This document shows, piece by piece, positions 2,666 through 50,946 of a DNA stretch of 64,000 nt. A program made the translations under genes and the position numbers. A model generated the notes under the pieces. The model did no database searches. It saw only the letters and a list, made by a program, of their open reading frames with translations, and was not told the origin of the DNA. Origin of the DNA: Lytechinus pictus (Eukaryota); the NCBI RefSeq assembly GCF_037042905.1, contig NC_087251.1:24058001-24122000 (forward strand), in the 5' to 3' direction. Each line of letters begins with the position of its first letter. The first letter of the stretch is position 1.

Positions 2666-4711
2666 AAAAGGTATCCAGCTATAAATGTCTTATGAGAGCA
2701 GAAGGGGGAGAGAGGAGGGGGCATATTGGCATAAAAATGACTATAAGGATAAAATTGTAGTTAGAAGATAAATCGTAAATCATAGAATGCGAAAGATAAT
2801 AAGGGATACCAACAAAGTTAGACAAACATACTGACTGCATGACAAACAAACTGATTTACTGAGGAGTAGGCAGAAAATTAACTTTCGAATCTTAGAAAAA
2901 AATAACCAGGAGGAATAATGACGAAGGACTTTTTACAATAGTTCTCTTTTAGAATCATTATAGTTAATGATGGTGTTCATTATTACAAAATACATTCTTT
3001 ACTTTGGTGGAAAAAAAGGATTTGATTGATTTTGACTTCTGGGTTAAACTTGGCAATTGCATAAGTGTTATAAGCACTTTGAATTTGCCAGTACTGGTCA
3101 GAAAAGCAAAGCTATTTCCCCCCTCACTGCCCCTCATCACTGCTCACCACCCCTCATTGCCCCACATTTTCCACCTGATCTAGTTGGACAATCTGGAGGC
3201 AGATTTTTTTTCTGTCTGCTTCAATTGAAAACTGACCTCAATTACTCCTTCATTTTAGAGTAAAGGATGCTCGTGATTTTTTTTTATCGTATATGAACTA
3301 GTGATTCAATTCTATTGCCCTATTTCTATCACACAATTGCAATTTTTGTAATTTTCTCAAGCTGAATTGAGATCCATGTGATGACAGTCGGCTTTCTCAC
3401 CACAGCCCTCAACCCTTCTTATTTTTTTCTCTTCACATTCTACTTATCTGTTCAAAGGTTCTTCAGAGATTTTCTGAATTTCTTTGAAAGGATAACCATA
3501 AGAAAATTAATGATTTCTGTGTTTTCTTTTCCTTGCTTGTAACATTACAATATAAAAGTATTTCAAGTATGTAGCGATAAACATGCTCTTTAAGACTTTT
3601 GTTTTAAACACCTTAATGATTATTAAGAATTTGATAATAAACATTAAAGTGATAAAATGACAAAGAGGGGCTTTGTAAAGATGCATAATTTATGTAAGAT
3701 TGTTGATTCCAGTAAAATAACAACATGGTTAATGCTATCAAGCATCGAAATTATCCACGTACAAGAATTTTCATCAAAGTCCAATTATCATCAAAGTATA
3801 TAGCTCATGAGCTACCTTTATCTAGTACAATACGAAGACAGTCCCCTTAGCTAGTGTTATCTAGAGTTTTATGAGTCATTGAACTTAAATGATATTGGGT
3901 AAATAATCATTCCATGTTATAAGACATTACACATTCATCAACGCATACAATCTTGAAGGAGACATTAAGCGAAGTTCAATAAGGAATATGATTGAAAACA
4001 AATGTCACACTGGAGGAGCATTTTAGTTTTGTATAGATTCTGTATGGAAAATGAGTCATGCAGGTATATTATATAGAAATAATCATGCAGGTATATTTCT
4101 TGATAAGATAAGAGCTATTGATAATGATATTTGCTACTGAGTAGGATTTCATATTTTTACCACAAAAAAATAGTCAATAAGTCTTGGAACACCTCTACCA
4201 AATTATTTATTACAAAATTTTGTCATTTAAGGTTATGCAATTCAATTAAGGGAGAACTCACAGAGTATATTTCGTTTATTCTCATTTCTCAATGGTTATC
4301 AAAATAGATAAATTATGTATACAGCAATATCCTCTTGCTAAGTTTATTGAAATGTGAGTTCCAGAATATGTCACTAAAATTTCAAATTACCATGAGGAAG
4401 GCTTGGTTTATTTGATAGAACCTTCCACTGTCAAATGAATAACACGCCAACAACTTGAATATAAAGAAAACAAATAAGACATAACCTTTTGGCAAATAGG
4501 ACATATTTGCAGTCTCCAGACTTCATAATCAGAACAAAATTTTATGATCAGATCCAGGGGATAATATTTACAGTTGTATATTATGTTGGGTAGGTAGTGT
4601 TGGGCATATTTCTGTTTAGTATAAATCCTGTATGAGAGTAGATGTATTCATCCACACCAAAAATGATCATTTAGTTAACTTTGCTGTGTGAAATATTGTT
4701 AATCGCATCAG

Positions 4712-11530: not shown

Positions 11531-14500
11531 TTGTTTCAACTCTTCATATTTGTTACTGAATGGAATTCTGATGACTGTCTCTGTCTCTATGTCATCTCTG
11601 ATATCTCCTGAAGTGCTCAAAAGCCTTCTAATGTTTATCGCTCCAAGTAGCATCAAAAATAGATTGAGCTGTTTGCTATTCTACCCTTACTGAGCAAAGA
11701 TAGGCTAAAACACAGATTCAGGTTATAGGTTCAAGAGCATTCCATCTGAAGTTCATGATTTCTGAACTGCATGTGCTAAGTGGAAAATAGTTTTTAATGT
11801 TTATTGGTTTAATATTCTTTAATATGCTTAGATATTCTTTAAGTATTCTTGAAGAATATGACATACTTATTTCATATCTTCACTGACTACTCATCGGTAC
11901 TGGTGTCTACAACATGAAAAAAGCACATCTAACTCTCTGTACTTTCATCAAACATTTCCACGTTGAAATCAATCTAGTGATATTGCAAAACAAGGTGTGT
12001 TTTTCATGTGACACCTGGATACCTTCATAACGCATTGAATTCCATACCCCTGACCAGTATTTACTTTTTCTTGATGCTTTGGTCTGTCCAGGATATTGGG
12101 AGAAAACGAAGAAAAGATCTCGAGACGTGATTTGAATGGCACGTCACGGAGGAGCATTTTCAAACAAGTCGGGCGTTTAAACACAGGTGCTGAAATTCTA
12201 GGCCGTAGACTCTCCCATTCCATGAGATTCATAGCCCAAAAAGTCAATATGGCATTTGCATTTTTTGTCTCCGATGCCAAAACTGATCCGAGTTCTCCAG
12301 AGCTATGTTGCAATTGGGTCCAGCCATGCTTCTTTTATCCACACGTGCCTTGGGGCAACGGTAAATAGAGAGAGAAAGCGAGATGACCAGGAATGGATTG
12401 TCCAGAGGAGGTTTTGAGATGAAGAAGTTATTTTCTGTTTATTTTCCAAATATTTGAAGTATGGGAATTCAAGTGCTTCCCTTCAAGGCACTTTCACTGC
12501 ATGCTCATACTTTTAACCTGTAGGTGGATTGGAGTAATTTCATGCTCATCTGTTTAGGATCATTTTTTAAAATACTTTATGTACAGTATATATAGAGTTT
12601 TTAAATTTCTTTAAGTGTTTAGGTTGCTAGATGTAATGTTAAACAAACATGGGAACGCTGCCTCATGTAAATTTCTTTGTAATTTGAAGACTTAACCGGC
12701 TTTATTCGACTAAATTACCTGCAAAAATTACCTTTAAATCCAATTTTATTTTGCCATGGAAAAAATATTGTTTAAAGGAATACTACTGATAGTATCCAAC
12801 AAGTTACATTTGAATGCAAAGTAAATCAAAATTGATACTGTATTACAATGTTTATACGAAAATAAGATCCTTTTATTTGACACCTGTAATTTCCTAAAGG
12901 ATATTAAAAGATGTCCTTAATGATAATACTTCCTATTTTATGGTTTTATGACAGTTCCTTTGAAACATCTTTGAAACTTACTATTACCTAATTTCTTTAC
13001 TCAATAGAAGGATAAAAATAAAGCATCTTAATCCTTTAGTGGTTTGTTGTTGTTTTTCCAAGTGGTGCACACTTAGATTTAGGTTTCTTTTGCTGTAACG
13101 ACATTGCGACTTTTATCTCACAGATCTCCCTCACTTGGTCAAAATAGAGACTGTATTTGATAGTGTGCTTTTATAGTTGGTAAACATGATCAGGTGGTAA
13201 ATAGCATCTATAGCTTCAGGATATATACATGTTTTCTTTCTTTCAAAGTCTCCAGATGCATTTCAAGCTCTGTTCCCACTGCCAGATTTATGTGTATTCC
13301 AAATTGCTTATGCAATTTTTATTGATTTTGAAGATTATATTTCTACCGATAGCTGGCAAATGCTGTGCTGTGCACAACATTGTAAGACGTGGGACTTGTA
13401 AATTAAGAAGGGTGAATAGATTTTGATCATTCCATACCTGGAAAAATCCACATGCACAAGGTGTAATATTGACAACATGTTTAATCTCATATTAGCTTTA
13501 TTCCAGTTTTTACTAACAATGTTATCGTATTTATAATCTATTAAATAAAAATAGAACATGAATACATCTCCAAAAATCATATCAGGATGGACTTACTAAT
13601 TTATGTTTCTTTGCTTTGTAGTGCTTGCACAATTATAACACAAAATATGGTTCTTTGGAAAACTAAAGATCTAATGGGAATGGGGTTAGCTCCGAGATAA
13701 TGTAAGGTCTCACTAGTGCCTATCCTCATTCATTTCATCATTATGTTAGAATTTGTATGTTTGATGATTTTAGAGGTTTGATCACAATGAATAATATTCC
13801 TCATGCATGTGGCCTTTAATGTGGATGTGGATTTCTAATGAAGAAGAAATCTGACCTCCACTATCTTCAGTAGATATCAAACTAGTTTCAAAATTGGCTC
13901 TGATAGAATAAGATACATGCTATTGAATTCTTGTTTAGTTAATAAGTTTTATATAAATCAGAGTCAGGGGCATGTTCACACCATTCACCGGCAGTATCAT
14001 GTGTCGCCAAGTTGTCTATAGGAGACTCGACGACACTTCTCGCCTGTAAAAACATTGTAGATAGTCCGGTGTCCCAAGCTCAGCCAGTAAGAAGCCAAAA
14101 CGGTTTATGCATAGCCGCAGCTATCACCAGAGGCATTCACCACGGAAATAATATTCACTCTAGAAGAAAAAAAGCAATTGAGCATTCGTAATCAATACTG
14201 CCACCTTTATTTTTCAGGGCGTATTTTAAGGAATGTGGGTGCACCTCGATGTCCAACTGTGGTAGGGGTACATGTTTTCATTAGAAATGGAATACGGGAG
14301 ATCAATAAAAGCGCGTTTCAGGGGGTTTTGAGACATGGGACGTGGGATGGATTACGTGTGCAATATTAGCTTGTTCTTGGAACTAAGCTTCTGCCATAGG
14401 CCCCCTAGCTGGAGTAACGTTGTACTTATGCCGACGACGCGAGAAGAGGATTTTGAAGGCTTTAGACTTCATTGATGATGGTTGGCTTGGTGATTGGGTC

Positions 14501-22192: not shown

Positions 22193-22231
22193 CTGAATAG
22201 TGCAAGTGATATCGCCCCCGGTCAGGGACAG
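22193..22231 (+). CDS. NRXN: candidate 39-nt cassette exon (LNSASDIAPGQGQ) near start of LNS3
   Basis: ttttatcag|CTG...CAG|gtaaac; phase 0-0, in frame, GC-rich island. Confidence 0.5.
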
Positions 22232-31907: not shown

Positions 31908-32029
31908 GGAAGAAGAAGGGCAGTGCTCTAGCACACCCTGTAACCATGAAGGAACTTGCACGGAGGGCTGGAACAGGTTCATCTGTGATTGTCGTATAAC
32001 TGGCTATACTGGAAAGACATGTGACGAAG
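31908..32029 (+). CDS. NRXN: alpha-neurexin exon (EGF2)
   Basis: gtag|G...G|gtaggt, 122 nt, phase 2-1; QCSSTPCNHEGTCTEGWNRFICDCRITGYTGKTCDE, six-Cys EGF with the neurexin GWNRxxCDC signature (not in ORF track). Confidence 0.95.
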
Positions 32030-34960
32030 GTAGGTTACCAAAGCAACCAAGTACATTCCACCATTCACTTTGGCTGGCATGTTTCTCACTTGCATCACTC
32101 TTAAACGCACTGCCTGTAGCTTTTATGAGCAGTCTGGGGAGTGTTCGTTACTGAGGTGCAAAAGCTGTCTAGACCCAGAAATGTTCTTATTAGAAAGGGA
32201 GATTCTATGTGCTGATAAGTTGGATAAAGTCTTATTCAAAACCCCTGAAAGATATACATCTAGATCTGGCAAACTTGCCTTGTATCTGGAATATACCACT
32301 CTCACATGTACTTTACATCAGCTTATAAGCAGCTACAAAATAAAAATGAAGTATCATGTGTAGAGGTTCTTTCCTTTTTTAAATCAAACTTATCTTATGA
32401 TATTCCTCAAACTACTTTATGTTGAAATATCAACTTTTTGTTTTAAACATTCATTTATTTTAAAAAATCAAGTGAATCTATATGGACGATTTACTGAAAT
32501 TGATTTTTTTTTCAAAACACATTAATTGTTCTATGAAATTAAACACTTGACATTAATACTCAAACTGCATATTGGAGGAAATCTTTTAAAATAAATTCTC
32601 ACCTTGCACTTAGCCGAGCAGTGATATCCCAGACTCTGACAATATTGATGACAGCAAATCCTTTTTTTTTATCAAAGGTTTCTTGCTTGCTCTGCTCTTG
32701 CATTGAGATTGCCATATAATTTCCCTTTTGCAATATGAAAGTCAACATTTTTGCACTGCGTTTGTAACCATGGATGTTTTTTTAACAGGACAGAACATCT
32801 ATGCATGGCATGTAGAATGAAGTTTGTAGTGTTTTGCAAAGTTTCTTGAAGATCACTGCTGTTAACCCACCTCATGATTCATTTGATATGGCCACTGAAT
32901 GAAAATATATCCAGGCTATCTACATTCAAGAAGCCAAATCCCAAAACTTTTTTTTCAAAAAAAATTGAACTTTATTTTTATGCTGGAGACATAAAGAAAA
33001 GATCATAATGATTAAAAAGCTCAGACTTGTGTTTGAGACATTGATTCATAAAGAAGTGATTTTTTTTATGTTTAAGAAGAAAAACAGCTGGTTTAAAAAT
33101 TATCCAAAAAAAATTCACTCGGCCTATGTAAAAGTATAAGACATAAATCTAATAAAAATACCATTCTTTAAATAAAAGTGAGTGCAGCAAGTACTTGGAA
33201 ATTATTCATCCAAAATTTACTTATAACCTAAAAGCATATAACATCATTTGGATTCTGAGAAATTGCATAGATGCACCAACTTTCGCTTCAAATTGTATTT
33301 TCTTTATCTGTTCTCTATCTTAATCCCTTGAGCAATAGCACTTGCATGCTTAACGAATGCGCATCAAAGTATTGGTTTTAGTATAAACTGAGAACCACTC
33401 AAAGGGGATAAGTGTTGATAAGTTGGTGATTTCTACTTAGATTAGTATGTTGTTAGCAAAGGGTGTCATATTATGGGCCTGTCATGATTTTGTAAGATCA
33501 ATTTGTAGTTGTTAATTGTAATAATTGCATAGAAGCTTATATGCACAACTTGACAGTTTGATTAAATATGAAGTGAATGAAATGGGTCAAAATGTTTTGG
33601 CAGCTCCACTTTTTAATGAACCTACCAAACTAAATGCTGTAATGTGGATGTGAACTGACTGTATCCATTCTCTCATCACTGTGTGAGTGATAAGATATTT
33701 ATCTTTGTAAACTACCAATTAAATTCAATTAATTGCATTTTCTTCCTGAGGGCTGTATTTGCCAGATATCAGAATCCATCTTTGTTTTATCTAAAAATGT
33801 TTTTGAAATTGCAAGCTTCGGGCATATTATGACACCCTTTTCATTGACATTTCTTTAACATCTTATCTGTCTAATGACAAAAACTGTTAACATGCTTTCC
33901 AACTAACTTTCAAACTAATTAATTTTGTTTCCATATCCATATCCATTTCTGATACTGCTCATTCACTTTACATAACTCTCATTTAAGCATACATGAGCTT
34001 ATATGTGAAATGGGTATTATTCATGCATTACATGAATTTATATGCTTGCTATTTGTATGGATGTCAAAATACAATATTCCTGAATTCCATAAAATAAGGG
34101 AAATGGGAATAAATGGGTCATTTTGGTATCATTTTGGGACATTCAAAAACTATTTATAAAATAGATTGCCCCATCAAAATATAGATGGCTTTTAAGAAAT
34201 TGGCAAAGCTCAATCTTTTTCTTATCATACTAAATGTTTATGTTAAAAAAAAGGAACATTGATGATCCAAAACGATCTTGACTTGGAGTTAAATTAGATG
34301 AAGTAAAGTCAGTTGGAAAGACATTATTGTGTGTTTTGTGACTAACACAGTGTGTTCAGCTGTTAACATATGTACGTATTCAGACATCATTATCTCCTTA
34401 GTTTGTGCATCTTGACTAATCTTTTGCAGGCTCGTCTGTGAAATCTAACCTCTCTCTCATCTAACAGCATACTGTTTCTTCTCTCTGCTTGTCTGGTAGA
34501 TATTTTACTGGAAGATCTCTTTTAAATTAAGAAAATGGCCCTTTGAACAAATTTCTTCAATATTATTTTCAATGCTACTATGATATTTATTTGGTAAATA
34601 AAAAAAAAATTAAGTCACCCTTGTTACTAGCCCATTAACTAATCAAGACAGATATAATCCTATGAAAGAAATACTTGCTTCTCCCTCTCTCTTCAAATTA
34701 CTCTCATTTAGTTTTTTGAGATCTTCCAGTAAAGTATTAGGAATAGAATCTCCTTTTAGTCACTACCATCCATCCCAAATTTGCTGAATTAAAATCTTCT
34801 AACAATTCTCTGCTTGCTCCTACTCTTCCAAAAATTTGAATCCTCCTCCTCCTCCTCCTCTCCGATCATCCTCTCAACAATCTTCCCCTCCATTGCCGCA
34901 TCACTTTCTCACGAAAAATCCTAACCTGCTCTGTTACTTGCTCTGTCTGCTTTTCATCAG

Positions 34961-34978
34961 TGTTCACCGAGGAAGGAG
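34961..34978 (+). CDS. NRXN: candidate 18-nt microexon (VFTEEG) between EGF2 and LNS4
   Basis: ctaac branch point, UGC-studded pyrimidine tract, cag|TGTTCACCGAGGAAGGAG|gtgagt; phase 1-1, in frame. Confidence 0.7.
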
Positions 34979-36185
34979 GTGAGTGTGGTACTAATATGGG
35001 TAAAAGTATTGAGGACTAGGATATATACTAACATCTAATTATAATTGAAATGGATGATGAAACAGAAAAGAGATAATTGTGTTGATTGTAGTAATGTAGG
35101 ATAGAATTACCGATTTCTAACCCATTGTGAATGTGCATGAAAATTACAGATTTATCCCCCTCCTTGAACAATAGGTTCCCTACTCATACCTATGCCAGTT
35201 CATCTATCTATTTCACTTCAATTCTTATATTTCTTTTAATATTCTTTATACCACTATTTCTCCAAGTCTTTAAAAATCTATTCACCTTAAAGGGAAATAA
35301 GACTTCATCTTATAGGAACTTTAATTTTTGCGATTGTATTTTGGATTATTTTGTTATTTCTATTGCACTATTTTGTAGAAACACCTTTGCGCATTGTGCC
35401 AAGTACGTGAATATTTCAACATGAAATATTGAATATTTCAACATGAAATATTGAATATGAGCTGGTATCCTGTTGAGGGCGTTCTTGCATTGATTCCATG
35501 ATTTTAGTCTTAACCCTTGAAATTTCAAAGCACCACCCTACTCCCACAGGCAAAGGGTTAACCATTTCATGATTTCAATTACAATTCTGGTCAGTGGTTT
35601 GAAGTGTCCTGATATAACCATTATAATTATGATGGAAGACCTAATGTGCAGTCAAGCAACTGATTGCCCCTTTGAATTATTGATGAGGTTTTATTGGAAG
35701 GTGGTGCTGTGTTTATAGTTAAACCAGGGAAATGCTGTGCACGACTGTCGTGTGTTCAACCAAAGGGATTAATTTATTCACTTCAGTAGAGAAATTGGTG
35801 AACCTTTTATTTCCATGTTAAAATTAGAGATGAAAATCACAGGAATCGTATGTAAAATTTGATGCAGAATTTTCAGAGCTTCATTTATTTGGGCTGTGAC
35901 AATCCAAACAGTGCTATATATCATTGATTGAGAATTATGCTCTTGGCTCACATCAAGGCCAGAGAGTCAATGGATAAAACGTGTATTTTAATTTACTTCA
36001 TTATTTATTGATACAAGAAGCTCTTTGATTTTAGTGTAGATTAAGAAAATTCCACAATGCATGAACTTTAGGCAAAACTCGTAAAAGAGTTTTGATTATT
36101 GAACAGGGTTCATTTTCCATTCTTTAAGACACTGGTGATAAGACCATGATGACCATCCTCTCTTTGTTGAATCTCTTCTTTACAG

Positions 36186-36512
36186 AGGTAGCACGACTGT
36201 CCTTCAATGGTAACCAGTACATGCGCATCACAGTATCGGCAAACTCGCGCAGCAAGGTTGAAGACATCTTCCTCAGGTTCCGCACTCGCTTCCCAGACGG
36301 CCTCCTGGTGGCCACCTCCTCTGATAACGTGATTGACATGCTGATGGTGGAGCTGAAGCAAGGATTGATACGGGTGATCACCAACTATGGTATTGGTCAG
36401 ACGGTCATCACTGCAGGACACGGGCTGGATGACAATCGATGGCATGCTGTTCATGTCCAGCGGCGGGATGATCGTCTTATGGTCACTGTGGATAATACTG
36501 ACAGAGCCGAAG
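36186..36512 (+). CDS. NRXN: alpha-neurexin exon (LNS4)
   Basis: tacag|AG...G|gtaagg, 327 nt, phase 1-1; LSFNGNQYM...EDIFLRFRT...LDDNRWHAVHVQRR. Confidence 0.95.
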
Positions 36513-38055
36513 GTAAGGGCCACTTTCTATTAAAGCTTTCTAAACTTATATTGTATCCATTTCTAGTTATGTATTGTTTATCTGGAAACTCCTACACTTG
36601 TACAAAATGCTATGATATGCATTCAATTTGGCTGGATTCTCTCTCATATATATTTTGTGTGTTTTTTTAATCATTATTATCCAAGACATTTCATTCATTT
36701 CAGTATAATGGATTATAAGGATGACAAAAAGAGAATGTTTCTGTAAATATCCATGTGATTATACCTGCTACTGAATGATGATCTCAATTATTTATATATC
36801 TGTCTTTGTGAGCTTTTCTTTACTTTTCTCTTTCTTTCAACAAATATTTTGAGATTTTTTTCCATTTAATTAAAATTTTGATAGTTGACAGGTAGTTCCA
36901 ATACAAGATTTAATTTTTTGATGAAAGTCACTAAATGGCATCATATGTTATACACATAGCCCATAGAGCTCAGTGAGTTAAAGAAGGAATTCAAAGCCAA
37001 AATGAGAAAACATAATGATTGTGATCATGAATTACATTATAATGTTGTTGTATTATAAAGCCTGAATCTTCCTTAACCCTTTGTTTCCATCAAATTACTA
37101 GTACCTTTTTGAAAGTATTCATAAAGTACATCTACAAATTTCATTAATTATTTAGTTTTATATATTCCTCTACAAGATGGTTTAGTTTGATTAAACAGAA
37201 AATTCTGTTCAAACACTAACGAAGAGGAACTTTATATCATCAGCATACCAAAAGTTACTATTAGGAAAGTCTTCCATCCAACAAATGTGACAAGTCAATA
37301 AACCATCTCATGGCGATTACTCATTGTCAATTGATATACTTGGATAGAGTGTAGTATATCCTATGCATGATCCAAAAGGGAAAGATGAATATAACTATTT
37401 TATTATGGCTCATCTAAATGCTTTACAGGTTATTCTTTCATATGCATAATCTCTTAGTCATATCCCTGTCTATCTTCTCTTTCACTCTCATACAATTTCC
37501 ATTTTGTTTCTTTTTTCCAATATTGTAAATATATCATTAACTGTCAATTTCTTTTTACCAGATATAAAGTTTTCTTCTTTCATGCCATCATCAATTATAT
37601 ATAGATAATGGGACGATTGTCTTTATATATGATTGTAATCATTATTCCTGTGTGTTTCCAGTATCATCTGTTCTGTTATTTAATCACTTTACATATATAT
37701 ATCAGAAGTTTTATCCCAATAGTCCCATATGCATCATGTCATGTTAGTCATGTATCTATAGACTCCCTGTACATGTAGTGGTTCCCCAATGCATTCCAAA
37801 TTACTTTTTCTCAGTGTTTGCTTTTCATATCTTTTATCAATTCAATCATAAACATTTTAAACTGTAAAAAAATGAATTCATTGCTCAGTTGGCTGCCAGT
37901 AAATACAAAGATACATATGACCTTAAACAAAATATGTCATAACAAAATATGCTCATTAATGTTTTGTGTGTTCAGTATTAATTTTGCTTTTATTTCAAGA
38001 CTTTATTCAATAAATATTTGGGTTCAAGTTAAATTTATCGTATATGATTCATTTA

Positions 38056-38133
38056 AACTGCAGTTTCTTATGATGTCATTTGTTTGATGGAACTAACTGC
38101 AGTTTCTTATGATGTCATTTGTTTGATGGAACT
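38056..38133. repeat. perfect 39-bp tandem duplication
   Basis: AACTGCAGTTTCTTATGATGTCATTTGTTTGATGGAACT x2. Confidence 0.9.
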
Positions 38134-38799
38134 GAGCAATCATCATTGAAACATTTTTGTTTTCATTTGATCAAAACGCTTCAGTTAAAAGCTTATGTTT
38201 CTTTATGTCAATGTACTAACATTTATATGTAAATGAATTTGTTCAAATACTAACAATCTAGTTTATTTATCTTTACTTTCACTGAGAAGCAGGAATGAGA
38301 GCACACACAAAAGAATATTAACAAGTTATTTATCTGAAAATGCTTTTACATGTATCTAATTATAAATTTTCTATATATCTTAGTATTCTTATCTCTCTGC
38401 CTCTCCTTGGAATAAGTAGGCCTGTTGCAATTTTTTTTTAATCAGAAAGGAGAAATTTAACAATTAAATTGAATGGATTTTTTTTAGGTTGAATGTTTTC
38501 CTCTTTCAGAATGATATGCTTATTTCTAAAGATATATTTTTTTCAATAGTTTTCTTATGCATTTGGATTAATTAATGGTCAGATGTTGACTTTTGCACCT
38601 TTATTTTCATGAATTGATATTGAAATTTGAAAATTTGAAGAAAAAAAATAATGATAAAGATAAAAGATTTTGAGCTTTCTTGCTTCAAGGTAGATTTGGT
38701 AAAGATAAATCATGTAAATTAAGTTTTGTCAAGGTGTCACATCATGTTTATTTTTTTATTTTTCTCCCATTGCTAAAACAATGATAAATCTTTAAACAG

Positions 38800-38823
38800 A
38801 TAATGTGCCTCCTCGTCCTGATG
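38800..38823 (+). CDS. NRXN: candidate 24-nt microexon (DNVPPRPD) in LNS4
   Basis: aacag|ATAATGTGCCTCCTCGTCCTGATG|gtgaga; phase 1-1, GC-rich in an AT-rich intron; acceptor tract only moderate. Confidence 0.45.
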
Positions 38824-40810
38824 GTGAGATCATTTAAAGAACAATCTCAAAGACTTTGATAGTCTGCTTGGAACTATTTGGAATGAAGTTTCTTCTTTGT
38901 TCAATTAATTTACTGATGAGGCATGATATTCTGACAATTTTGACCTTTCCTTCAATTTTTATTTGTTCTCTGAGTACGTACGAGGAATGTCAAGTCACGA
39001 ACAGATCAAATGTGATCAGTGATTTCTAAGTTTTGTTTTGAATTTTACACACAGTCTGAGTTATATTTCAGACTGTTCTATTCTTTTTAAAGAGAATGAA
39101 TAACACAATCCGACACAAATGCACCTTAATCACAATTCTCACAATAGATAACAACACAGCACAAAATTTCTGCATGATTTTCAAGCATGAACCTGCATGG
39201 CACATATAGATGGATCAATGCTTGCAATTAAAACATCATTTTGCATCTATAGTGAGCGTATGCTGTTTGCATTCTCTTCTTTCTCTGTTTGTGACTTATT
39301 AATCTTTTGAACTGTAATTTCATATTTTGACGGATATAATCAATTTGAACAGGGCATGAAGCATGCTTATTCAAACTTACCATTATTATTCTACTAACAC
39401 AACTAACACAGCCTGGACAATTGATGTCTAATATTGTGTTCATATATATTCAACTTTGTTGATATAGTATTAGCATGCTAACTTTGAAATTCAATTGACT
39501 ATATTGTGTCACTTAATTTTGGAAATATTGAAACTGGTTTTTGTTTTCATTTTGATTTGAAAACAAACAAAATTAATCTATCAATATTAACTCATTGTAA
39601 ATTGCAATGTTGTTATTTAAGATTTTTTTTCTGAAGAGGACTTTGAATGTTCAAAAAGGAAGATCCAAATTCCATATCATATTTTGTGCAATACAATTTA
39701 GAAATGAGCCTTTTTCATTAAGAATAAGTGGGAAATTAAGAATTTGAAGGAGAAAGTCAAAATTAAGTGGGGAAAGAAGTTTTATTTGTAGGTTTATCTT
39801 TCTTGAAAAGAATTTCTGTAAAATTTCTTCTTTTCTTCGATTCAACCAGAATGGATGCTGCCTTCCAAAACATTGAAAAGCTGCTTCCTTCTTGAACTTT
39901 TTATAGAATGGTTGAGAAACCAACTTTCAACCTCTTTTCTAATTCTTACTACATTTCTTTCTGAAAAGATAAGCTGGAAAATGCTAGATATCATTTTTCT
40001 TGTTTATGCTATGGTTCCTTTTGTCAGGTCATCTCAATGCGAAGTAAATAATAAAGAAAGATACACAGTTGAATGCCTTGTTCCAGAATCATTTTTGTCA
40101 TGGAATGGCCTCTGATACACTGATGTTTAAAAAAAATGAGTCATCATCCATTGTACACAATGATATTGACGGTCTTATATTTTGATGCAAAGTTTGAAAT
40201 TAAAATATTTTGAAGAACTTTTGAAATTGAGGCTCACTTTGAATTTATCAAAATTAGTCTATAATAAATTAGTATGATTGTGAATTCAGTAATATATATA
40301 AGATGTAAAGGGCCCACTTGAATACTAGGATGAATATTATGACTGGGCCATCTTTTTCTACCATTGTGAAACAAATGTTGCAAATAGAATAAATTTAAGG
40401 TTTTTTTTCCAAGTTGATTCTTAGTTACTCATATATTTAGACAAGTCGAGGTCTGTTTATGACATATATAATTTTATCTGTGAATCATAAAGTTTCATCT
40501 TATCTTCCCTTTTCTGTTACTGGAAGTACTAAAGATATCTTATGTCAGTAGACATACTATTTTGAATAAAAGAGGTCTAAATCTTACCTTCATCACAAGA
40601 ATACTCTTTTAAAAAATAGTTTAATGAAACTCCAATAGTCCGAATGCATTATAAATTACAAACATTATTTTGGAAATGTTTATTCCATGACAACTGAAAC
40701 ATATGGTGAACCTCAGTTGGTAATTGAAGTTTTACTTTTCGATAATTTTGAAATATAAAATCTGAATCTCTTTAAAAAATTTTGAATTATTTTAAAAGAT
40801 ATATATTTTT

Positions 40811-41645
40811 TTTGTCTCGCCTGCATAGCAGAGCGAGACTATAGGCGCCGCTTTTCCGACGACGGCATCGTCAACATTGAAATCTTAACCAAGGTTAAGT
40901 TTTTGAAATGTCATCATAACTTAGAAAGTATATGGACCTAGTTCATAAAACTTGGACATAAGGGTAATAAAGTATTACTAAATATCCTGCTTGAGATTCA
41001 GGTCACATGACCAAGGTCAAAGGTCATTTAGGGTCAACAAACTTTGACCATGTTGGGGTTATTTGAGGAATTGTCATCATAACTAAGTTTATGGATCTAG
41101 TTCATGAAACTTGGACATACGAGCAATCAATTATCCTTGAGCATCCTGTGTGAATTTCAGGTCGCATGACCAAGGTCAAAGGTCATTTAGGGTCAACAAA
41201 CTTTGGTAATGTTGGGGGTATTTTTGGAATTGTCATCATAACTTTATAAGTCTATGGATTTAGTTCATGAAACTTGGACATAAGAGCAGCAATGTATCCC
41301 TGAATACCCTATGTGTGTTTCAGAAACATGGCCAAGGTCAAAGGTCAATGAAGTCTGGCCGTGTTGGGAGTATGTGTTGAATTGGCATCTTAACTTAGGA
41401 AGTTTATGGTACTTGCTCATGAAACATCGACATAAGGGTAATCAAGTATGAATGATAGTTTTGCCAATCCTTAGGTCACATGATCATGGTCAAAAGTCAT
41501 TTTGGGTCAATGGACATAATATTTTATTATCTTATTAATGTTTTCTTCTGTGAATAATTATTCATTAGTTGTTTTTCAAAGGAAGCACTGCTGCTATATC
41601 GAATTGCGTAATGCAGGCAAGACTGCCAGAGGCGTTCCACTTGTT
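40811..41645 (+). mobile_element. Helentron-associated non-autonomous element with internal ~160-bp tandem repeat (~4 units)
   Basis: Inserted in a T-run; subterminal IR GTCTCGCCTGCA / TGCAGGCAAGAC; 3' mini-hairpin then CTTGTT; units contain CATGACCAAGGTCAAAGGTCA. Confidence 0.75.
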
Positions 41646-42443: not shown

Positions 42444-42464
42444 CATTTAACATAACGTACGGAG
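42444..42464 (+). CDS. NRXN: candidate 21-nt microexon (AFNITYG) in LNS4
   Basis: ttctcttctcccag|CATTTAACATAACGTACGGAG|gtgagt; phase 1-1, in frame. Confidence 0.68.
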
Positions 42465-50934: not shown

Positions 50935-50946
50935 TTACTCCCAGAG
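50935..50946 (+). CDS. NRXN: candidate 12-nt microexon (VTPR) in stalk after Cys-loop 1
   Basis: ttgcatcatctatttctttacag|TTACTCCCAGAG|gtaaac; phase 1-1, in frame. Confidence 0.5.

Follow-up and report, generated by a model that had tools for sequence, protein, structure and literature searches.

The + strand of a 64,000-nucleotide (nt) stretch of Lytechinus pictus DNA, here called the window, carries an alpha-neurexin gene, covered from the later part of LNS2 through its stop codon, and the intron separating its EGF2 exon from the first LNS4 exon contains an 18-nt element with the features of a cassette microexon (Table 1). Inclusion would add six residues (VFTEEG) between EGF2 and LNS4 with the reading frame kept and no stop codon introduced. 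Judged from sequence, the element is a well-shaped but unproven microexon, belonging to a known class of element and located at a position outside the known neurexin splice sites. We consider it probable that the exon is real in some cell type. More tentatively, and with slightly less than even confidence, we propose that it is a default-skipped microexon included mainly in a neuronal minority. An earlier interpretation of this DNA, referred to as the sequence-only reading, had claimed an in-frame, microexon-like VFTEEG element in the EGF2-LNS4 intron of neurexin, which was borne out by the frame, a scan of the window and shuffled controls.

Splice signals of the candidate microexon

The window contains 14 neurexin exons, all bordered by AG and GT, whose translation is identical to the L. 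pictus RefSeq protein XP_063957469.1 at 975 of 975 residues, a count that leaves out the start of the last exon. Identity to the L. variegatus and S. purpuratus proteins is 99.4% and 93.6%, respectively. The host intron of the candidate is 4156 nt long and in phase 1.

All motifs listed in the sequence-only reading, specifically CTAAC, three UGC, CAG, the 18-nt exon, GTGAGT and two downstream ACTAAY, are present as described. Two reports characterize exons dependent on eMIC by an extended AG exclusion zone, UGC close to the 3' splice site, a UCUC-rich tract and a CUAAY branch point (10.1101/2021.02.24.432780; 10.1101/2024.09.17.613571). UGC is given there for about three quarters of mammalian eMIC targets and is described as not strictly needed (10.1101/2024.09.17.613571). 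With SRRM3/4 (Srrm234 eMIC) neural microexons the candidate shares a frame-preserving length below 30 nt (the size class extending to 30 nt), a strong donor, a long AG-free zone, a UCUC-rich tract and UGC located between branch point and acceptor AG, all three copies lying downstream of CTAAC. It differs from them in also carrying two downstream UACUAAY and in being known here from sequence alone. Based on its architecture, the candidate would be an eMIC-type microexon. Each of the three UGC reads TGCT and hence also represents YGCY, an MBNL-type motif.

The AG-free zone, which is absent from the sequence-only reading, measures 198 nt, compared with 263 nt for the annotated 21-nt exon of the same gene and 23-45 nt for constitutive exons, and is accompanied by a CU-rich pyrimidine tract and a distant branch point. 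Ten UCUC/CUCU tetramers lie within 200 nt of the acceptor. A zone of this length is uncommon when composition is kept (P=0.025) and is partly composition-driven; AG-free runs of at least 110 nt occur 22 times on the + strand, the candidate's zone being the fourth longest. Purines make up 12 of the 18 exon bases. The donor shares the top score among 9 correctly placed donors under a generic donor matrix. A 16-bp stem covering the donor is no stronger than in shuffles (P=0.32), and the RBFOX-type motif TGCATG, found once within 300 nt downstream, also follows 3 of 15 other donors.

Both sites downstream of the donor are full UACUAAY elements, TACTAAT at 34989 and TACTAAC at 35026 (ACTAAY cores at 34990 and 35027), and the second is bipartite, with a TAAT half-site 3 nt later at 35036. 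The proximal downstream intron therefore contains the ACUAAY core and UAAY half-site that mark QKI-activated exons. Two TACTAAY within 55 nt of a donor would occur by chance at about 2e-4 per 100 nt, and the entire + strand contains only 11 full TACTAAY. Within the first 100 nt after the donor, ACTAAY is found twice at the candidate and at none of the 15 other donors examined. The sequence-only reading had further counted seven ACTAAY in 33900-35035 where roughly one would be expected, which we could confirm (expected 1.0 in 2000 dinucleotide shuffles, P=0.0005, or 1.3 from base composition); seven ACTAAY within any 1136-nt stretch were seen in 0 of 200 whole-window shuffles. This count has to be qualified because the sites at 33902 and 33914 represent one 12-bp tandem duplication, and counting them once gives a cluster P=0.0026. 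Five of the seven clustered sites sit 320-1060 nt upstream of the candidate exon, and ACTAAY is not enriched across the whole window (67 found, 85 expected). The next intron, after the LNS4 exon, contains six more + strand ACTAAC (37215-39402), with no exon candidates tied to them. Overall, the segment at 33.9-39.4 kb accounts for 13 of the window's 30 + strand ACTAAY.

A rule-based scan of the whole + strand, requiring a YAG acceptor in a pyrimidine-rich context with no AG within 20 nt, an exon of 3-51 nt and a strong donor, returned two matches, namely the candidate and the annotated 21-nt exon. The full tier of the scan, combining frame, UGC, branch point and AG-free zone, was passed by the candidate alone, with no match in 150 block shuffles and none on the - strand. 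Looser tiers were reached by chance in 6-58% of shuffles, with the loosest tier at 58%. On these sequence counts, the candidate holds as a statistically well supported microexon-like element.

Table 1 Features of the candidate microexon and of the surrounding neurexin gene (positions within the window).
Feature	Position	Strand	Basis or remark
Candidate 18-nt cassette microexon, phase 1-1	34961-34978	+	sequence and frame
Branch-point-like CTAAC	34921-34925	+	at -40 from exon; motif match only
Three UGC within pyrimidine tract	34927-34950	+	TGC at 34927, 34939, 34948 (-34, -22, -13)
Acceptor CAG	34958-34960	+	sequence
Donor GTGAGT	34979-34984	+	nine bases around donor are those of annotated 21-nt exon
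AG-free zone, 198 nt	34760-34957	+	71% pyrimidine
Two UACUAAY (34989, 35026), QKI-type element 3' of donor	34989-35039	+	motif match
Five further upstream ACTAAY (two from one tandem duplication)	33902-34643	+	motif match
Upstream constitutive exon, EGF2	31908-32029	+	assembly joins and protein identity
Downstream constitutive exon, start of LNS4	36186-36512	+	assembly joins and protein identity
Annotated 21-nt alternative LNS4 exon (AFNITYG)	42444-42464	+	internal control; RefSeq models, three urchin species
Annotated 39-nt alternative exon, start of LNS3	22193-22231	+	Lytechinus models
Annotated 12-nt alternative exon (VTPR), stalk	50935-50946	+	RefSeq models

Evidence on use of the candidate exon and comparison across animals

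Several observations weigh against a used neuronal microexon. Seven sequencing runs were listed, six of which were guessed to be RNA, and four were used, their RNA status being itself a guess (X1 and X2 from one study, X5 and X6 from another study and organism). In all four RNA-like assemblies, representing two studies, contigs join 32029 to 36186 with no letters between. Likewise, none of the 15 urchin protein models, which represent 5 species, includes VFTEEG (5 S. purpuratus, 5 L. variegatus, 2 L. pictus and 3 Diadema models), and yet together they do capture neurexin exons of 12, 18, 21, 30 and 39 nt, and the insert is also missing in starfish, sea cucumber and hemichordate models. The DNA element was observed in one urchin, L. 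pictus. Given mainly neuronal neurexin RNA, an exon with high inclusion across all neurons would be expected to appear in the models; urchin annotation presumably drew on nerve samples. Further, the scan rules were set post hoc, after the candidate was known, with a generic donor matrix, and the scan overlooks two of the three annotated small exons in the window (39 and 12 nt). At the downstream position, UACUAAY points to inclusion in muscle and skipping in brain in mammals, according to PMC13004596. The deviating sequence of a crinoid insert and the negative result at a brittle-star-like locus, both described below, count on the same side.

The inclusion assumed by the sequence-only reading is accordingly not supported, the skipped form being the one found in all RNA-like assemblies and urchin models examined, and because the insert is absent from every urchin model, the exon would have to be rare if real. 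However, contigs drop rare forms and assembly joins can therefore not show the absence of inclusion; missing contig cover at 34961-34978 was likewise not counted as absence. Assemblies can retain small-exon bubbles: X1 keeps side contigs of depth below 5 beside one of depth 36, and two 58-nt contigs of X2 at the LNS4 donor carry a mixed consensus that fits the included or skipped 21-nt form, all 28 letters matching either form when compared by eye. It speaks for the candidate that the same gene uses other alternative exons of 12-39 nt.

The linker between EGF2 and LNS4 was compared across 200 proteins carrying the EGF2 motif; it was measurable in 193, the other 7 being genomic read-through fragments or non-neurexins. 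The linker is 7 residues long in 191 of these 193 proteins (39 distinct sequences, many rows being isoforms of one gene), the exceptions being Antedon with 13 and Amphiura with 12 residues. In the model from the crinoid Antedon (P0067), a 6-residue insert is located exactly at the EGF2-LNS4 junction, which speaks for the candidate, but it differs in sequence from VFTEEG and comes from a single unverified model. The 5-residue insert of Amphiura (P0004) was discounted, as its last codon appears incompatible with a phase-1 exon followed by an acceptor of the type seen in the brittle-star-like locus L001. The insert resembles the end of an intron, the model is chimeric with a trypsin domain, and a model error is probable. 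This Amphiura 'neurexin-1-like' model has the trypsin-like domain fused at its start and is probably a merged gene model.

A metagenome scan identified two echinoderm-like neurexin loci, L001 and L002. Neither the 1462 nt preceding the LNS4 exon of L001 nor the roughly 310 nt present from the upstream intron of L002 revealed a microexon candidate; both introns are cut, and that of L001 may be longer. Positions 311-634 of L002 represent, in comparison with L001 1465-1788, a second and more diverged copy of the LNS4 exon; it has intronic blocks in common with L001 and contains an interruption by unrelated sequence, as in a duplicate or decayed copy. Five fragments were found among short proteins spanning the EGF2-LNS4 junction, none of them spliced across it. 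Genomic read-through fragments from scallop and abalone stop at the same EGF2-LNS4 intron position, which would therefore be old.

Structural context of the insert

The sequence-only reading had placed the insert at a hinge whose geometry it would alter. The term hinge is wrong for this junction: PMC4183798 describes a rigid LNS2-LNS5 core of alpha-neurexin in which EGF2 tightly joins its neighbours, so that EGF2-LNS4 falls within this core. The known spliced hinge is that of vertebrate neurexin AS6 (also SS6), where a six-residue insert between LNS1-5 and EGF3-LNS6 changes LRRTM2 binding threefold (PMC4489214). AS6 of NRX1alpha resembles the candidate as a rare six-residue insert at an alpha-neurexin domain junction; it went undetected for a long time and influences ligand binding from a distance (PMC4489214). 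In contrast to AS6, the candidate lies inside the LNS2-LNS5 core, where none of the vertebrate isoforms examined varies. Each of them has the 7-residue linker, while some vary by 9 residues deeper within the LNS4 region, and the junction aligns gap-free to the insert-free structure 3QCW. By position, the candidate is not one of the vertebrate sites SS1-SS6, as judged from these alignments.

As a stand-in, Antedon LNS3-EGF2-LNS4-LNS5 with its natural insert was modelled with AlphaFold from a 43-sequence alignment. The mean predicted local distance difference test (pLDDT) score was 85.9, with 63 in the insert-bearing block; an insert-free Diadema model has a pLDDT of about 90 at the junction. 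Superposition of the Antedon model on 3POY gave a root-mean-square deviation (rmsd) of 3.6 A over 580 residues (Z 47.5; Foldseek template modelling score 0.82). The insert-free control model P0100 deviates from 3POY by an rmsd of 21.5 A because it includes LNS6, and hence is not a like-for-like control. The model predicts an Antedon-type insert to be a looped-out linker with the LNS3-LNS5 arrangement kept, which speaks against the claimed change of geometry. As AlphaFold leans on an insert-free alignment, the kept core is weak evidence. For VFTEEG, local loosening or an exposed acidic patch would be expected rather than a domain swing.

Proposed regulation and alternative explanations

We hypothesize that most cells fail to recognize the exon owing to its short length and distant branch point, and that in neurons Srrm234/eMIC raises recognition to a sufficient level through the UGC-rich 3' splice site. 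Inclusion may be tuned by a QKI-like STAR protein bound to the two downstream UACUAAY. In the resulting protein, a short acidic loop would be present where EGF2 meets LNS4, and the rigid core would not be rearranged. By analogy with the mammalian six-residue AS6 insert at another junction, the six residues may make the EGF2-LNS4 connection looser or present an acidic patch close to LNS4, and could thus adjust ligand binding at a distance. It should be noted that the splicing maps applied are those of mammals and fly, while the host is an urchin.

The label 'textbook neural' given to the element in the sequence-only reading is overstated, in light of the muscle association of downstream UACUAAY in mammals and the MBNL-type reading of the three UGC. 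The same observations are consistent with a real microexon whose activation depends mainly on a QKI-like STAR protein, in muscle or elsewhere outside neurons, and not on neuronal eMIC, an explanation that we regard as rather unlikely. Here, the two full UACUAAY right after the donor, one of them bipartite, would activate the exon, and the upstream YGCY and ACUAAY would repress it elsewhere; if its source were a non-neuronal minority of cells, its absence from the neurexin models would be understandable. A precedent is the 33-nt Snap23 microexon of mouse muscle, which has two downstream QKI motifs (PMC12064062). It shares with the candidate two downstream ACUAA(C), one of them bipartite, with YGCY nearby; however, the donor of Snap23 is weak and its main drivers are downstream RBFOX motifs, whereas the candidate has a strong donor and an eMIC-like 3' side. 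Against this explanation, the 3' splice-site layout closely matches that of eMIC targets, a role of QKI in brain microexons is reported as well (PMC12064062), no urchin QKI target data were found in the literature searched, and none of the four assemblies shows inclusion.

The skipped form seen throughout the four assemblies and 15 urchin models would equally be produced by a pseudo-exon or decayed exon, i.e. splice-like signals in a pyrimidine-rich patch that are unused or used at noise level. The fixed linker length suggests that inserts may be poorly tolerated at this junction, and both the repeated occurrence of long AG-free runs on the + strand and the chance rates of the looser scan tiers point the same way. 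The full combination, however, never arose in the shuffles, and its sole other + strand match under the basic rules is a genuine exon; a stop-free length that is a multiple of three and two UACUAAY by the donor also argue against a pseudo-exon, and the loss of rare forms from contigs limits what the assemblies can say. We regard a pseudo-exon, too, as rather unlikely.

Recursive splice sites pair YAG/GT with a neighbouring pyrimidine tract and lie within very long introns. For the AG/GT ending the element, a recursive (zero-nucleotide) splice point, which would leave no mRNA trace and so yield the skipped-only mRNA of the assemblies, is highly improbable even though AG directly precedes GTGAGT: the intron is merely 4.2 kb long, this AG is a GAG behind 16 purine-rich bases with a better CAG 18 nt upstream, and an identical GGAG/GTGAGT occurs at the end of the annotated 21-nt exon, which suggests that the end of the element is just a strong donor.

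Other small alternative exons and features of the gene

Public echinoderm models contain at least five alternative segments in the neurexin gene. Annotated echinoderm neurexin microexons, which also include 30- and 18-nt exons at the SS1 position, share gene and size class with the candidate, and its donor and AG-free zone resemble those of the 21-nt exon. They differ in being present in RefSeq, several across echinoderm classes, while the candidate is in no urchin model. Counterparts of the 21-nt exon are found at the same place in starfish (AYNVSIG) and sea cucumber (AYNITQGR), and L001 encodes an unannotated 27-nt counterpart at 3722-3748 (AFNVTQPDG). All of these echinoderm sequences keep an N-x-S/T sequon, so that the 21-nt exon may provide a site for an N-glycan. 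In Ptychodera, the alternative segment at this position is 7 residues long and has no sequon. At the position of the 39-nt exon, the Antedon model carries a 16-residue insert, and starfish models have VTSK at that of the 12-nt exon. The intron preceding the 21-nt exon contains a degenerate tandem repeat of period 159 (2.7 copies, 40905-41347).

Past the donor of the LNS4 exon (36513-36730), each of the four runs has low-depth intronic contigs that either extend from the exon or follow closely after it, and the reading frame past this donor is open to 36670. They possibly represent an intron-retained or truncated, secreted neurexin, or pre-mRNA. The public L. pictus model XP_063957469.1 begins with residues read from intronic 13946-14191 and omits an LNS2 exon (2350-2513) that matches L. 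variegatus models; judged by these positions, the model looks split, with a wrong start.

Implications for neurexin splicing

Two reviews describe extensive neurexin splicing as a vertebrate trait or as unreported in fly and worm (PMC12665717, PMC10084454). No description of urchin neurexin microexons was found in the literature, where titles and the starts of abstracts were covered and most subscription papers lay outside the search. Torres-Mendez et al. 2019, with its supplements, and VastDB, which reportedly includes a sea urchin, may already list the exon.

It is conceivable, if improbable, that echinoderms have their own alpha-neurexin splice site at an ancient EGF2-LNS4 intron, where urchins and crinoids would each add six residues, the urchin exon being under opposed control by eMIC at the acceptor and QKI downstream of the donor and giving rise to a rare neuron- or neuromuscular-specific form in which the LNS2-LNS5 core is unlocked. 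If real, the candidate would be a sixth alternative segment in the gene, inside the rigid core, outside SS1-SS6 and at a junction of fixed length across bilaterians. A confirmed exon would allow an inexpensive test of whether an echinoderm reads the eMIC and QKI splicing codes alike.

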